Origin: a virus
Taxonomy: Duplodnaviria; Caudoviricetes
IMG/VR virus record: IMGVR_UViG_3300011116_001007
DNA length: 64,000 nt
Reading direction: 5' to 3' (one strand)
Positions 32,453 through 36,985 of the stretch are shown here, piece after piece. Made by a program: the position numbers and the translations under genes. The notes beneath the pieces were generated by a model. The model was not told the origin of the DNA. It saw nothing but the letters and a program-made list of their open reading frames with translations, and made no database searches. Every line of letters starts with the position of its first letter. Position 1 is the first letter of the stretch.

Positions 32453-33204
32453 GTCTTTGACAGTTTTATTATTTCCGCATGCACAGCATCTGCTACTTTT
32501 TGCTGAGTGGCCTGATCTGTGTGAAAAGGTCGATCGTCATTGTAATCTGGGTGCATGACATAAGTATCACCTACCATCTTGCCTTGCATTTGATAATCAA
32601 ACATGGCACGACCCAGTGACAGTTTCATGTCTATTGGAACAATTCCTGATTTTTCTGCTTGATGATGCCAATGCGCCAGAATCCAAGAGTCAACTTCTTG
32701 ATACAATGCTTCGTTAAAAAAATATTTAAAATGGTATTCAATGGCTCGGTGTTGATCTTTGGTAATTATCAAAGTAGGACTGGTTTCAAGTCCTTGTGGC
32801 ACTGTACTCAGTATGGGTGCGTCATTGTCGGGAGTTTGTACTCCATTGGAGGATGTGCAAATTGGGTTGTGGCCAACATAAGTGGTGTAGGAACTTTCAT
32901 CATCCGTGAATGGATATATGAAATTTTTCAATCCTTTTTCAACTTGAAAATTGTCATTTACTAACAAGTTCAACCGGCTGCTCCAGGTGCTGTGGTACAA
33001 TAAAAATCTACATCCGATTTCAACTGCTTCTCGCATTTGCCAGGCAATGCCAAGATTGTCCATAGAAGACCTTGCCAAACACAATACCGAATATCCATAT
33101 TGATCTTGCAATATTTGGCTGTAATGATCTCTAGCATTGCTGGTTGCCGAACTAAAACTGTCACCACACACTATTATATCAAATTTCATTTTATCTTCAT
33201 CCAT
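32449..33204 (-). CDS. SGNH-hydrolase-like protein
   Basis: CGDSFS, CLARSSMDN and RPFH. Confidence 0.6.
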   Translation of the reverse strand: MDEDKMKFDIIVCGDSFSSATSNARDHYSQILQDQYGYSVLCLARSSMDNLGIAWQMREAVEIGCRFLLYHSTWSSRLNLLVNDNFQVEKGLKNFIYPFTDDESSYTTYVGHNPICTSSNGVQTPDNDAPILSTVPQGLETSPTLIITKDQHRAIEYHFKYFFNEALYQEVDSWILAHWHHQAEKSGIVPIDMKLSLGRAMFDYQMQGKMVGDTYVMHPDYNDDRPFHTDQATQQKVADAVHAEIIKLSKT

Positions 33205-34655
33205 TCCAGTTTCTCAGCAGTAAATGGATAATTGGCTTCTTTGTAAAACACCTTGCGTTTGTTTAGGTGTCTGCGAGCAAATTTGCACGTACTAGTAATA
33301 TCCCATATCTGCACATGATCTTTGTCTTCGGCTTTGCGGATGCCGCGCCCGATGCTTTGTATCACTCGCACAAAACTCTTGCCAGGTTCAATCAGCACCA
33401 GATTAAAGATCCGCGGAATGTTGATGCCCACAGCAGCCACACCATATGTGGCCACGATGATCTTGCCGTCGCTCACAGCAATCTCATCATATTCTTCCTG
33501 ACGTACTTTGGCTTTAGTGGCTCCAGAAACAAACACGGCATGTTCACCCAGTCGTTCCACAAGCTGTCGACCACATTCAGTTCGATCTACCAAGACCAAA
33601 GTATTGCCTGTTTCGTTAACTTGTTGTATCAACGTTGCCATGGTATCCAGGCGGCCAGATTCTTCAAGAAGATATTTTAGTTCCGCTTGATAGTCAGCGT
33701 ATTCCACATGATCTACCAATTGCACTATGTTCACATGACAATTGGCTAAAACACCAGCGTCCTGCAATGTGCTTGCAGACAGTCTGCTGATAACTGGGCC
33801 TAGGCTGACCAGCAAGGCCTGACTTTCAAACAGTTCTTTGGGCACTGTTCCAGTCAAGCCCCAGCGAATTGGCACTCTAGCCATTACACCTGTGAGTAAA
33901 GTTTTTAGTGCATCTGCTTTGGCCATGTGTACTTCATCCACTATCACACACACCACACCTTCAATGAACTCTTGAATGGTGCAATCGCCTACGCCGTTCT
34001 TGGTGTTCTTCATAAGATTGTTTAGACTTTGCCAGGTGCAGATGGTGTGTGTTCGACCGTATTCTTTTCTGTCTCCGAAATACACACCCACATCCAGGTC
34101 CATGTTGATGTAGTCTTTTTCTGTTTGTGTAACCAGACTCTTGTTGGGCACAATCACTATGCTACGACCATATGCACTGACTGCGTCGCTGAGTGCTGCT
34201 GTCATTATGGTTTTGCCTGCACCCGTGGCCACTTCTTGTATGCATTGTGGATTGGTCAAGAAGTTGTTGATGATCTCCACCTGGTAGTCACGCAACAAGA
34301 TTGGTTGGCCTGCTGCAGGATGGTTCTCAGGCCATGCTTTGTTTGCATAACTTTGTTCCGTTACCTGAGCAAACTCAAATGTAGTTGAGTATTCTCTGCG
34401 GTCGTCCAGTTCAATGTCGTAATCAAATCGTTCCAACAAAGGAATAATATCCGGCAACAAATTGATATATGTGCTGCCGCCCAGTTGGAAGTAAGATACC
34501 TTGCCATCCCAGCGACCCAGCCGTACTGCCGGCAAATATCTTGCATACGGAATATCATATTTGAATGACTTGACCAAGGCTTTGCGAGCATCAAGATCAA
34601 GTCCTTCAATTTTGATGTTCACTTCGTCATTGATTTGTATTGTTGCTAGTTTCAT
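33186..34655 (-). CDS. uvsW: SF2 helicase UvsW
   Basis: LRDYQ, ATGAGKT, VDEVH, GLTGT, VGINIP and QSIGRGIR. Confidence 0.92.
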   Translation of the reverse strand: MKLATIQINDEVNIKIEGLDLDARKALVKSFKYDIPYARYLPAVRLGRWDGKVSYFQLGGSTYINLLPDIIPLLERFDYDIELDDRREYSTTFEFAQVTEQSYANKAWPENHPAAGQPILLRDYQVEIINNFLTNPQCIQEVATGAGKTIMTAALSDAVSAYGRSIVIVPNKSLVTQTEKDYINMDLDVGVYFGDRKEYGRTHTICTWQSLNNLMKNTKNGVGDCTIQEFIEGVVCVIVDEVHMAKADALKTLLTGVMARVPIRWGLTGTVPKELFESQALLVSLGPVISRLSASTLQDAGVLANCHVNIVQLVDHVEYADYQAELKYLLEESGRLDTMATLIQQVNETGNTLVLVDRTECGRQLVERLGEHAVFVSGATKAKVRQEEYDEIAVSDGKIIVATYGVAAVGINIPRIFNLVLIEPGKSFVRVIQSIGRGIRKAEDKDHVQIWDITSTCKFARRHLNKRKVFYKEANYPFTAEKLEWMKIK

Positions 34656-35518
34656 TGTATTTTTATTTCACGCACAAACTGTTGGGTGCTTATTTGTTGA
34701 ATCAAGTGTGTTTGATCTACAGACGATTCTAGATCTGCCACAGGAAAATAAAGTGGTTGTGCTTGTATATTATACACACTTGTGATTCCTTTTGCAAGAA
34801 AAAAATCACTGTGTTGCTCAATATAGTTTTGTATTTGTAGATAGTTTTCTGTACTGTCTCGATCATAAAATGCTATCTTAAAATCGGCACTGTAATGACT
34901 GAATGGTCGAAATGCTTGGTCGCTTATGTATGTGTCATTATCAAATGTTAAGTCTTCAACTGTTTTGCCTATCTCACAATAGTTAAGATATACTGTACCA
35001 AATTTAATAGTGGTCTCCCCATATTCGCGTTGTAGTTCAGCCGACAAGTAATGTGTTTTAGGCAAGCCATACCAAGTACACACTATACGCTGAGTATTTG
35101 ACTTTGTAGCATGCTCGCATCTATGTACTGCTAAATTTAAATCAGCCAATGCTGTCCTAACATCATTTGGTGCTGTCATCCAATAATCTGATGTTTGTTG
35201 GTCTAACAACCCATGATATTTTTCAAATATATTATGCAGGTAGTTGAGACAGTCTTGTGTGTATTCAAACTCACGATCAATTATGCGTTTGTGGTTGTTT
35301 ATGATATCAATACAGTTTTGTATCATGTTTACCGCACGAGATCTTTCTTTGGCCGGATCATTAAATCCGTAAAATCTGTCCGGATGATCCAATGGATATT
35401 GATGCCTTTGTTGCATCCGTTCAAGCCATAATTCTGCTAACGCAGTTGATCTAATACGGAATTTTAATTCCATACTGCCACTGTGGCCTAGCAAAATAAT
35501 AAGATGTTTATTAACCAT
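34652..35518 (-). CDS. hypothetical protein
   Basis: 288-aa AT-rich ORF with a promoter 5 nt upstream. Confidence 0.75.
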   Translation of the reverse strand: MVNKHLIILLGHSGSMELKFRIRSTALAELWLERMQQRHQYPLDHPDRFYGFNDPAKERSRAVNMIQNCIDIINNHKRIIDREFEYTQDCLNYLHNIFEKYHGLLDQQTSDYWMTAPNDVRTALADLNLAVHRCEHATKSNTQRIVCTWYGLPKTHYLSAELQREYGETTIKFGTVYLNYCEIGKTVEDLTFDNDTYISDQAFRPFSHYSADFKIAFYDRDSTENYLQIQNYIEQHSDFFLAKGITSVYNIQAQPLYFPVADLESSVDQTHLIQQISTQQFVREIKIQ

Positions 35519-35523
35519 GTTTC

Positions 35524-35552
35524 AGTATATACTTATTGCAAAAAAAAGTCAA
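35524..35552 (-). promoter_or_regulatory. sigma70-type promoter overlapping the terminator U-tract (leaderless predicted)
   Basis: TTGACT-17 nt-TATACT-GAAAC-ATG. Confidence 0.8.
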
Positions 35553-35576
35553 AAAAACAGGCACCTAAGTGCCTGT
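35551..35576 (-). terminator. intrinsic terminator of the AAA ATPase transcript
   Basis: ACAGGCAC-TTAG-GTGCCTGT followed by TTTTTT. Confidence 0.9.
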
Positions 35577-35581
35577 ATAAA

Positions 35582-35609
35582 GTTCGGGCGGAGCCAACCG
35601 TACCCAAAC
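35582..35609 (-). ncRNA. candidate regulatory RNA hairpin carrying an anti-SD apex
   Basis: GUUUGGG-UA-CGG-UUGGCU-CCG-CCCGAAC; a U-G wobble favours the minus strand; GGUUGGCUCC is complementary to GGAGCCAACC in the RBS at 36796-36805. Confidence 0.55.
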
Positions 35610-35612
35610 GTT

Positions 35613-35762
35613 TTAAAAAATCATATTCAACAGTTCGGCAAAATTCCAAGCACTCAAGAATACCCAGAACCACCCGAATGCGTTTTGCTGGCGTTCAAAA
35701 CTGCCCATGGCTAGCCACCCATTCAGCAACATAAACAACACTGACACTGCCATGGCACTCAT
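35613..35762 (-). CDS. small membrane peptide (49 aa, two hydrophobic segments)
   Basis: MSAMAVSVLFMLLNGWLAMGSFERQQNAFGWFWVFLSAWNFAELLNMIF; starts 5 nt after the AAA gene stop. Confidence 0.55.
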   Translation of the reverse strand: MSAMAVSVLFMLLNGWLAMGSFERQQNAFGWFWVFLSAWNFAELLNMIF

Positions 35763-35767
35763 GGTTA

Positions 35768-36793
35768 TTAGGCCGCTTTCATGCAAGTGGTTTCTGCTAG
35801 ACGTTTCCAATTGCCTGTGCTGAGTTTACGCAAGTCAGCAATCTTCAATGCCATACGCAAGCTCATTTCGCGCAGGCGATTTTGATTGGCATTCATGAAG
35901 TCAATGATCTCGTCTTGCATGCAAGGCTCAAAATCATAGTCTTGGAACAACACGCCGTCTTTGGCAATCTGCTTGATACGCAAGATTTTGTCTTGCATGG
36001 TATCCAGCGTCAAGTCCAAGTAGTGGCAACGACTTTGCAGTGCATCCAAGTGATCGCGCAGTTTCTGCGATTTCATTGTTTCAAACTTCAAGTTGGTGAT
36101 AAAGATCACACTGCCTTTGAAGTCGAATTGATCTGGGATGCCTTCACGACGCAAGGTGCTAGACTCACTCAGCCAGGAAATTTTACGTTTCTTGCCTGAG
36201 TCAAGAGCACCTTTCAGCAAGTTCAATGCCACGTCATCAACGAGAATACTGTCGCAGTCATCAAATACCAATACGCAATTATCATCGCTGTATTTGTACA
36301 AGGTTTGATACAGGCCAATGGGAGTGGCTGAACCTTTGACAACTTCTGCTCGCAGTCGTTTACCTGCCAGTTTATCAAACAGCGTGGCTTTTTCAATTTC
36401 TTGTTCCACGCCATAGCTCTTGCCCACGCCCGGGGGACCCGACACAATCATTGCACGGATGTCGCCACCAATTGCGGCTTTGGTCATTTCTGTAAGAATT
36501 TCAAAACGCTCACGGATACGATCCATGGCTTGTTCTTCAGTTTCTTTGGCTTGTGCCGGCACTGCGGCAATTTGCGGTTGTGCTGTCACACTGTCTCCTG
36601 ATACCATCTCATAGTCAGAGATAGCGTTTACTTTGATACGAATGGTGCTGGGGCAGTTGGCGAATGTGCCGTCATTTTGCACAGTCACATAGCCGCCTTT
36701 GGCACCGGTTTGAAAACCTGACACTAGAGCAAAGCTCTGATTTTTTACAGTTTTGCCGCGGTACTCGCCGCGAATAATACGAATAGCACTCAT
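35768..36793 (-). CDS. AAA+ ATPase with small N-terminal domain
   Basis: GPPGVGKS Walker A, LVFDDCD Walker B, FITN sensor 1 and LQSRC arginine finger. Confidence 0.9.
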   Translation of the reverse strand: MSAIRIIRGEYRGKTVKNQSFALVSGFQTGAKGGYVTVQNDGTFANCPSTIRIKVNAISDYEMVSGDSVTAQPQIAAVPAQAKETEEQAMDRIRERFEILTEMTKAAIGGDIRAMIVSGPPGVGKSYGVEQEIEKATLFDKLAGKRLRAEVVKGSATPIGLYQTLYKYSDDNCVLVFDDCDSILVDDVALNLLKGALDSGKKRKISWLSESSTLRREGIPDQFDFKGSVIFITNLKFETMKSQKLRDHLDALQSRCHYLDLTLDTMQDKILRIKQIAKDGVLFQDYDFEPCMQDEIIDFMNANQNRLREMSLRMALKIADLRKLSTGNWKRLAETTCMKAA

Positions 36794-36839
36794 TTGGTTG
36801 GCTCCTATTTGTGCGGTTAAAATTACTTACTAAGCTTCT

Positions 36840-36868
36840 ATTATAGCAAAGTACTCATTACTGGTCAA
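36840..36868 (-). promoter_or_regulatory. sigma70-type early promoter
   Basis: TTGACC-17 nt-TATAAT. Confidence 0.85.
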
Positions 36869-36956
36869 CCACTAGATTGTGGCTTTTTTGCAACAAAAAT
36901 CAGCCGTTTTCTGCGACATTTTTCAGCAGTTTTGGCGTTTTTTGTTGTTATGCTGT

Positions 36957-36985
36957 AGTTTAGCATGGTCTGAGTTACTGGTCAA
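36957..36985 (-). promoter_or_regulatory. second tandem sigma70-type promoter
   Basis: TTGACC-17 nt-TAAACT; shares TTGACCAGTAA with the 36840 promoter. Confidence 0.7.

Follow-up and report, generated by a model that had tools for sequence, protein, structure and literature searches.

The 64,000-nt stretch of DNA considered here at its full length (the window; IMG/VR record IMGVR_UViG_3300011116_001007) derives from an uncultured freshwater (lake and river) virus of the Caudoviricetes, and carries on its minus strand an early operon whose first gene, encoding a putative ATPase, has a ribosome-binding site (RBS) complementary to the loop of a hairpin at the 3′ end of the same transcription unit. 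The operon was read on this strand, and all coordinates given in an initial annotation made from the sequence alone were re-checked there; those of the promoter, RBS, hairpin, terminator and complementary segments proved correct in every detail. Transcription is predicted to start near 36833 from an early sigma70-type promoter (36840–36868; TTGACC at 36868–36863, a 17-nt spacer and a TG-extended TATAAT at 36845–36840), which scores 11/12 and is the top match in the region, leaving a 5′ untranslated region (5′UTR) of ~40 nt that ends in AGGAGCCAACCAAAUG. The RBS target site GGAGCCAACC (36796–36805), comprising the Shine–Dalgarno (SD) motif GGAG and the spacer, stops 2 nt short of the ATG at 36793, with which the 341-residue open reading frame (ORF) of the ATPase begins (35768–36793), a P-loop/AAA-like homolog of T4 NrdC.10. 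Five nucleotides past its stop starts a small hydrophobic ORF of 49 residues (35613–35762) with two hydrophobic segments and a grand average of hydropathy (GRAVY) of 0.88, and 3 nt past this ORF begins the anti-RBS hairpin (35582–35609; GUUUGGG-UA-CGG-UUGGCU-CCG-CCCGAAC), in which a stem GUUUGGG/CCCGAAC with one U·G pair closes a 14-nt loop, UACGGUUGGCUCCG. A U-rich linker, UUUAU (35577–35581), connects the hairpin to an intrinsic terminator (35551–35576; ACAGGCAC-UUAG-GUGCCUGU, then a U run), and the 3′ boundary of the unit is set by the next early promoter (35524–35552; TTGACT, 17 nt, TATACT), whose −35 box overlaps the T run of the terminator. The predicted fold agrees with that first proposed, UUGGCU being apical and the U·G pair lying in the stem, and the hairpin and terminator together reach −26.8 kcal/mol (z = −4.3).

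Within the window the RBS segment GGAGCCAACC (36805–36796) is, as had been claimed, the exact 10-nt complement of GGUUGGCUCC (35599–35590) in the hairpin loop; each of the two occurs only once in the 64 kb, and their duplex spans positions −13 to −2 with a predicted ΔG of −21.8 kcal/mol. A scan of every terminator in the window found several complements of 9–12 nt between the pre-terminator segment and upstream sequence that arise by chance, so that the window taken alone is not compelling evidence against a fortuitous match; among those complements only that of the ATPase hits the start site of a real gene. When the window was pooled with 80 related loci, complements of at least 9 nt were present in 41 of 329 RBS–terminator pairs, 37 of the 41 involving the ATPase RBS, and the reversed-sequence control gave none longer than 7 nt. 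No second operon with an independent anti-RBS element was found in the window or in ~0.6 Mb of related sequence, and the notion of a genome-wide anti-RBS principle within this phage was rejected, as no other operon has an element of its own. A search of the window and of 114-kb and 157-kb relatives found two occurrences of each lineage's 10-mer, one at the RBS and one, as the complement, in the loop (reversed-pattern controls: zero); with no further copies, no strong target remains besides the first RBS of the operon itself. In four distant loci (L048 at 1754, L049 at 109, L053 at 109 and L055 at 2444; e.g., AAGGAGCUA) the loop is in addition complementary to 9 nt in the SD region of a gene upstream of the ATPase, so that in some lineages more than one cistron may be subject to the element. 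A search of Rfam 15 found no family match, the only hit being a sub-threshold one to STnc130 (23.6 bits, against a gathering score of 55 bits) on the wrong strand.

The comparison set consisted of 80 IMG/VR loci encoding the same protein at 60–99% protein identity (lineages are designated below by L numbers); deposited phages offered no DNA-level match, and the protein homologs found there are only distant (≤52% identity). Contigs of 114–157 kb from these relatives are rated 33–45% complete and one contig measures 354 kb, implying a jumbo genome of about 350 kb. A comparison limited to the 25 nt ahead of each ATG and the sequence that follows each stop gave, in most close relatives, a longest exact complement of 10–11 nt, placed just before the terminator. 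Nearly every lineage has a pre-terminator hairpin with a loop complementary to its own ATPase RBS. The element lies between +6 and +1,760 nt from the ATPase stop and tracks the terminator rather than that stop, staying 5–10 nt from the terminator in all lineages, while its distance from the ATPase is set by the number of intervening small ORFs (none to three in most lineages, with longer insertions in a few). One such case is L035, in which ~1 kb of unrelated sequence separates the ATPase from a type B hairpin and terminator and the best RBS partner lies at about +1,023; it appears to be an insertion into the operon that retained matched ends.

Counted from the AUG, the duplex between RBS and loop always extends over about −14 to −1/+2, although the sequences that form it fall into discrete types. 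Type A pairs AGGAGCCAACC with GGUUGGCUCC, and type B pairs (C/G)GGGCUAGAAA with UUUCUAGCCC(G/C), its RBS being devoid of GGAG; more distant lineages have pairs of their own, such as GGAGCUAAC/GUUAGCUCC in L039 and AAAGGAGCUU/AAGCUCCUUU in L044. Most duplexes comprise 8–11 bp, and the longest (L055, L064) reach 15–18 bp. The L055 complement is 13 nt long if exact, or 18 nt with one bulge, and split helices are found in L064 and L074 (7 + 8 bp with a 2-nt bulge), in L063 (8 + 4 bp with a bulge) and in L073 (6 + 7 bp with a bulge).

Covariation of the RBS and the 3′ hairpin in related phages had been named beforehand as the decisive test of the proposed pairing, and its outcome is positive. At least eight sequence-distinct RBS/loop pairs remain complementary, the matched types including GGAGCCAACC/GGUUGGCUCC, GGGCUAGAAA/UUUCUAGCCC and GGAGCUAAC/GUUAGCUCC. 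Three of the changes are strictly compensatory, namely a U-A to C-G replacement (GGAGCUAAC to GGAGCCAAC with GUUAGCUCC to GUUGGCUCC), a C-G to G-C replacement (L005 CGGGCUAG/CUAGCCCG versus L030 GGGGCUAG/CUAGCCCC), and a paired deletion in which GGAGCUAG is shortened to GGGCUAG and CUAGCUCC to CUAGCCC. Specificity was assessed by a 19 × 19 matrix of RBS against 3′ loop, in which own pairs share a mean longest exact complement of 9.3 nt (−17.4 kcal/mol) and foreign pairs one of 6.2 nt (−12.5 kcal/mol); types A and B match one another over only 3–5 nt, and none of 20,000 permutations reached the observed diagonal.

The distribution of the types over the ATPase phylogeny points the same way. In a maximum-likelihood tree of the protein, types A and B are intermixed, and at least three type changes are needed, the same three at the 5′ and the 3′ ends; a single type-A clade costs 37.8 log-likelihood units (approximately unbiased (AU) test, p = 0.009, for a group named after the tree had been seen). 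Typing of 77 loci, including the window, gave 16 A/A and 21 B/B combinations and no A/B or B/A; of the two nominal exceptions, one is a contig ending 75 nt past the stop and the other, in a distant lineage, a chance 10-mer that lies past the terminator. Since type A modules are homologous among themselves, as are those of type B, the type switches represent exchanges of existing modules. A crossover within the 1-kb gene would give mismatched ends, and their absence argues for selection against mismatch, although a formal sign test would need more than three switches. Selection acting on RNA pairing at the RBS is well supported by the comparison of these sequences.

The hairpin context allows the strand and nature of the interaction to be addressed. 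In all cases the 3′ partner occupies the 3′ half of a 14–20-nt loop closed by a stem of 6–12 bp, and the sequence of this stem is wholly different between lineages, yet always paired (e.g., GUUUGGG/CCCGAAC, AGAGUCGC/GCGACUCU, CCUGGGC/GCCCAGG, CCUAGAGA/UCUCUAGG, GGUUGUGG/CCACAACC, AACCGACAU/AUGUCGGUU, CUAUCGCACU/AGUGCGAUAG and CAACUGCGGUGU/ACACCGCAGUUG). Scored blind to mismatch type, the distinct stems contain 234 Watson–Crick pairs, 5 G·U pairs and no A·C pair, which bears out the suggestion that the U·G wobble in the window is a sign of folding on the transcribed strand; at this position L003 has U-A and L001 C-G, the U·G of the window lying in between. Alignment of all 33 hairpins with MAFFT followed by RNAalifold yielded no structure, because stems that share no sequence between lineages are misaligned, whereas RNAalifold on alignable subgroups recovered a two-hairpin consensus, and in a distant subgroup revealed changes on both sides in 6 of 10 stem pairs around an invariant loop, UGUCUAGCUCCU. 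The intrinsic terminator is likewise conserved and covarying in the relatives. Elsewhere, the L027 loop variant UUUCUAGUCC forms a G·U pair against its own RBS, and bulges of 1–2 nt separate the two sites in several lineages. These features (G·U rather than A·C, bulges, the hairpin context, and a 5′ site at the start codon rather than at the promoter) fit an interaction of the sense-strand RNA; paired protein-binding sites on DNA fit poorly.

Folding predictions, in which only natural sequences were used and helix membership was judged in minimum free energy (MFE) structures, agree with a fold-back of the full-length mRNA and an open 5′ end of the nascent one, as had been proposed. Over its first 100 nt the predicted transcript shows no more structure than shuffled sequences (z = −0.01), and the RBS is essentially open. 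In the full 1,283-nt transcript, GGAGCCAACC is paired to GGUUGGCUCC in both the MFE and the centroid structure, forming a panhandle round the whole message, and the complete long-range helix is present in the full-length MFE structure of 17 of 24 lineages chosen to represent type A, type B and the other types. In the modelled structures, a closed full-length form and an open 5′ end are the behaviour that a fold-back mechanism requires.

A mechanism can be outlined on this basis. The early promoter would give rise to one mRNA containing the NrdC.10-like ATPase, the small membrane peptide, the 3′UTR and the terminator, and the loop of the 3′UTR hairpin would offer a complement to the SD of the first gene, its spacer and sometimes the AUG. 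As long as the mRNA is nascent its RBS would be free and ribosomes could load. After synthesis of the 3′ end, the loop could pair with the RBS (10–18 bp, −12 to −23 kcal/mol) and compete with binding of the 30S subunit, so that translation of the ATPase and of the coupled downstream peptides would be limited by a self-contained post-transcriptional brake. That the 3′UTR loop pairs with the RBS upon completion of the transcript, and thereby limits initiation on the ATPase and the coupled small ORFs, is in our view the probable function of the element. Action in cis, as a fold-back panhandle, would be the simplest reading and is favored by the predicted folds, and a stable hairpin-plus-terminator remnant of the decaying mRNA could in addition work in trans on transcripts made later. 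Complementarity, its conservation, covariation and specificity, the strand concerned and the thermodynamic plausibility of pairing constitute what is observed, and from these we infer the repression of translation and its timing; of the shut-off circuit proposed by the initial annotation, what has gained support is selection for RNA pairing at the RBS, and the translational shut-off itself, its role as a pulse timer and the choice between action in cis and a processed 3′ RNA, both of which that annotation allowed for, stay conjecture.

Several points weigh against this proposal. No element is evident in L056, L068 and L054, no terminator was found within 3 kb in L041/L080, and the T4-like phage RB27 lacks the element at its nrdC.10; the cultured phages ZZ1 and PA5oct give weak hints only, too short to support a claim. 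The MFE folds of 7 of the 24 lineages lack the helix, and neither ribosomes nor the kinetics of folding enter into such predictions for 1.3-kb RNAs. For all 10 bp to form within a closed loop of 14 nt, the hairpin stem would probably have to open in part. The independent events are modest in number, amounting to the 3 switches on the tree and roughly 5–8 distinct sequence types, and metatranscriptome data, seen as contigs only, cover the coding sequence patchily and the 3′UTR not at all. A scan with RNAduplex over whole loci and both strands was noisy: with G·U pairs and bulges permitted, comparable energies were reached elsewhere, and only in about half of the lineages was the pre-terminator site among the two best, which is why measures of exact complementarity were used here.

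Pairing between the two ends of an mRNA has been described in other contexts. In hok of plasmid R1 and in aapA1 of Helicobacter pylori, a 3′-terminal element pairs with the 5′ region so that the full-length mRNA is inert, while nascent and processed forms differ; the fbi element of hok pairs with the tac element rather than with the SD, and a toxin ORF, an antisense RNA and 3′ trimming that activates the mRNA all belong to the system. Here, unlike in hok, the SD and spacer are themselves paired, the first gene encodes a 341-residue ATPase, and neither a toxin nor an antisense RNA is evident. The parallel with hok and aapA1 drawn at the outset is therefore apt as an analogy of 3′-to-5′ fold-back and does not extend to membership in the hok/sok type, from which the SD as partner and the ATPase gene set the present operon apart. 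Among lytic phages, the T4 genes e, soc, 49 and I-TevI are known for local, promoter-dependent hairpins in which an arm immediately upstream sequesters the RBS, and translation of T7 gene 1.1/1.2 was reportedly found by Saito and Richardson in 1981 to be inhibited by unprocessed 3′ sequence and relieved by RNase III. The predicted occlusion of an RBS by a complementary mRNA segment resembles these T4 and T7 cases, but unlike the local hairpins of T4 the arm lies 1.2–2.8 kb downstream at the operon end (1.2 kb in the window), and the 5′ 100 nt are unstructured. The initial annotation was unaware of a precedent in an ATPase operon of a lytic phage, and literature searches likewise found no phage example of a 3′UTR-to-RBS architecture.

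The nearest cis analogue appears to be icaR of Staphylococcus aureus, in which a UCCCCUG motif in the 3′UTR pairs with the SD of its own mRNA, blocks formation of the initiation complex and creates an RNase III substrate (PMC3868564). This is a monocistronic bacterial repressor gene with a 390-nt 3′UTR and a 7-nt motif, and the pairing is not conserved even in S. epidermidis (PMC3868564). As in icaR, the interaction described here would be long-range, spanning the whole coding region, and the complement to the SD resides in the mRNA's own 3′UTR (8–18 nt, covering −14 to −1/+2, in nearly all related lineages). In contrast to icaR, with which it shares no sequence homology, the phage element is displayed by a loop 5–10 nt ahead of the terminator in an operon of a lytic phage, and its conservation, with covariation, reaches down to about 60% protein identity.

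Among the alternatives, the one that survives best is that the element works exclusively in trans, a stable 3′ RNA of ~60–100 nt, released by RNase E-type processing or started at a weak internal promoter, repressing the ATPase RBS on other transcripts, although this remains rather unlikely as the sole mode of action. Its closest model, and the nearest trans analogue to the present system, would be the feedback exerted by OppZ and CarZ of Vibrio cholerae, autoregulatory small RNAs (sRNAs) derived from 3′UTRs that are processed by RNase E, depend on Hfq and act in trans, OppZ targeting an internal cistron and triggering Rho termination (Hoyos et al. 2020, PMC7398697). This precedent is matched by an operon 3′-end RNA complementary to an RBS of the same operon, by a seed beside the terminator, and by the absence of a broad regulon, the 10-mer being confined to RBS and loop in the window and the 114-kb and 157-kb relatives; the target here, unlike that of OppZ, is the operon's first gene. 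The element also always abuts the terminator with a U-rich linker, as in sRNAs composed of a seed and a terminator, and type A and B relatives carry a comparable CUUUUAUA-type linker; such a linker and terminator are compatible with an Hfq module of the OppZ/CarZ kind, a matter of compatibility only. The seed is located in a large loop, the sequence ahead of the hairpin in the window is A/U-rich, and many lineages have an extra upstream hairpin that makes up a compact three-hairpin 3′ module. Finally, a weak sigma70-like site inside the small ORF (35649–35620, minus strand; TTGGAA, 18 nt, TATGAT) would start an RNA 6–9 nt ahead of the anti-RBS hairpin and yield a hairpin-plus-terminator RNA of ~60 nt. 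This site, however, reaches only 9/12, falls within coding sequence and is not kept in relatives with the extra hairpin in its place; a cleavage motif shared between lineages was not found either, and pairing in cis is thermodynamically favored in most lineages. Action in cis and in trans would be compatible with one another.

A second alternative, to which we give little weight, is that pairing of the 5′ and 3′ regions governs the fate of the mRNA, either as an RNase III decay substrate or by shielding the SD or 5′ end from endonucleases. The pairing in icaR does create an RNase III substrate, hbs of Bacillus subtilis exemplifies a shield, its 5′/3′ pairing guarding against RNase Y, protection against RegB-like cleavage at GGAG would be another variant, and the duplexes of L055 and L064 reach 15–18 bp. 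Most duplexes are only 8–11 bp long, however, which is probably short for RNase III, and protection from a GGAG nuclease cannot be general, type B being without GGAG. Moreover, the paired site is always the SD, spacer and AUG rather than the 5′ end, pointing to ribosome access.

The orthogonality of the types permits another, admittedly long-shot, proposition. Types A and B cross-pair over 3–5 nt only, yet are intermixed on the ATPase tree, and so resemble orthogonal 'alleles'; matched 5′/3′ pairs might be specificity types of a trans-acting phage RNA, which in a co-infection would silence the NrdC.10-like operon if the other phage shares its type, and spare it if not. If true, this would constitute an RNA-based self/non-self or competition system between closely related co-circulating jumbo phages, likened to the c4 heteroimmunity of P1 and P7 or to plasmid RNA incompatibility groups, and would drive both diversification and the joint exchange of the two ends.

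It is very improbable that the pairing senses a free first RBS and modulates the adjacent terminator and read-through into the next early gene. The constant 5–10 nt between hairpin and terminator, with the next promoter and gene immediately after, would suit such a role, but the terminator stem lies outside the paired region, the lineages share no alternative (antiterminator) structure, and the downstream gene has its own promoter. Still less can be said for a DNA-level inverted repeat with no RNA role, serving as protein-binding or recombination sites that flank a mobile or regulated cassette: the two sites do bracket a unit exchanged modularly between phages, but the 5′ copy is always at the SD and spacer, 30–40 nt downstream of the promoter and not at it, the 3′ copy is always within the loop of a hairpin with compensatory stems, the copies are always complementary on the same strand, non-Watson–Crick positions on the sense strand are G·U and never A·C, and the 1–2-nt bulges by which the copies differ in several lineages are tolerated by RNA helices rather than by paired protein sites. 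A chance 10-mer, the least credible of all, can invoke the 9–12-nt complements between pre-terminator and upstream sequence that arise within one 64-kb window, but is excluded by conservation, covariation and specificity over 80 loci.

Returning to selected pairing between 3′UTR and RBS, its interest stems from the rarity of the arrangement. Only a few bacterial mRNAs are known to pair over such a distance in this way, and as the best-studied of them (icaR) has the interaction conserved in a single species only, it had been open how general and how stable in evolution the mechanism is. The same logic now appears in an early operon of a lytic jumbo phage, with compensatory change down to about 60% protein identity, and the pairing has outlasted the gain and loss of genes within the operon as well as recombination events in which the two ends are swapped jointly. 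Judged by sequence comparison, it would be one of the best supported examples of 3′UTR-to-RBS pairing, notable for the depth of its conservation, its discrete orthogonal types and the lytic jumbo-phage setting. The presence of a regulatory signature on NrdC.10, a conserved T4-family gene, suggests that its dosage or timing matters. In addition, natural orthogonal RBS/anti-RBS pairs become available that could be tried directly in reporters.

The protein at the center of this operon matches PHROG 1250 (phrog_1250, unknown function; E = 4e-84) and, weakly, Pfam AAA, with no match in PDB or NCBIfam; its homologs in T4-like phages are annotated nrdC.10 and often mislabelled thioredoxin. The two-segment hydrophobic peptide encoded by the 46–49-residue ORF is conserved as a protein in relatives, which additionally gain or lose a very hydrophobic peptide of 27–29 residues (MAWVAVIVAL.CGYPW..., GRAVY about 2.1) and an acidic peptide of 35–37 residues (MYEIWDGDLFLY..YEADEA..GF), the latter present in the type B operons examined. 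Small-ORF content between the ATPase stop and the hairpin is thus modular (L004–L033).

Further features were noted around the operon. A second promoter-like site on the minus strand (36957–36985; TTGACC, 17 nt, TG-TAAACT, 9/12) lies ~115 nt upstream of the main promoter, so that tandem early promoters ahead of the ATPase are possible, and one contig from an RNA run (36574–36936) reaches upstream of the start site of the main promoter. The promoter scan gave no strong antisense promoter opposite the ATPase RBS. At the other end, the overlap of the terminator T run (35551–35557) with the next −35 TTGAC forms an TTTTTTTGACT junction kept across lineages L001–L040, a possible site of module exchange that presumably resembles the terminator-plus-early-promoter cassettes (PeSL) of T4-type phages. 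Downstream on the minus strand follow a 288-residue protein without family match (34652–35518) and a UvsW-like helicase (33186–34655); in L004, whose ATPase is 97% identical, the gene for the 288-residue protein is absent and the helicase follows directly after the terminator, revealing local mosaicism downstream of the operon.

In the two cultured phages mentioned above, a hairpin comes straight after the stop of the nrdC.10 homolog, with complements of 7–8 nt. In Acinetobacter phage ZZ1 (L082, 3554–3600) these are CAUGAUA/AUAAUUU with its own RBS spacer, and in Pseudomonas phage PA5oct (L084, 3314–3360), for which published RNA-seq exists, AUGCUACU stands against AGUAGCAU of its own RBS spacer.

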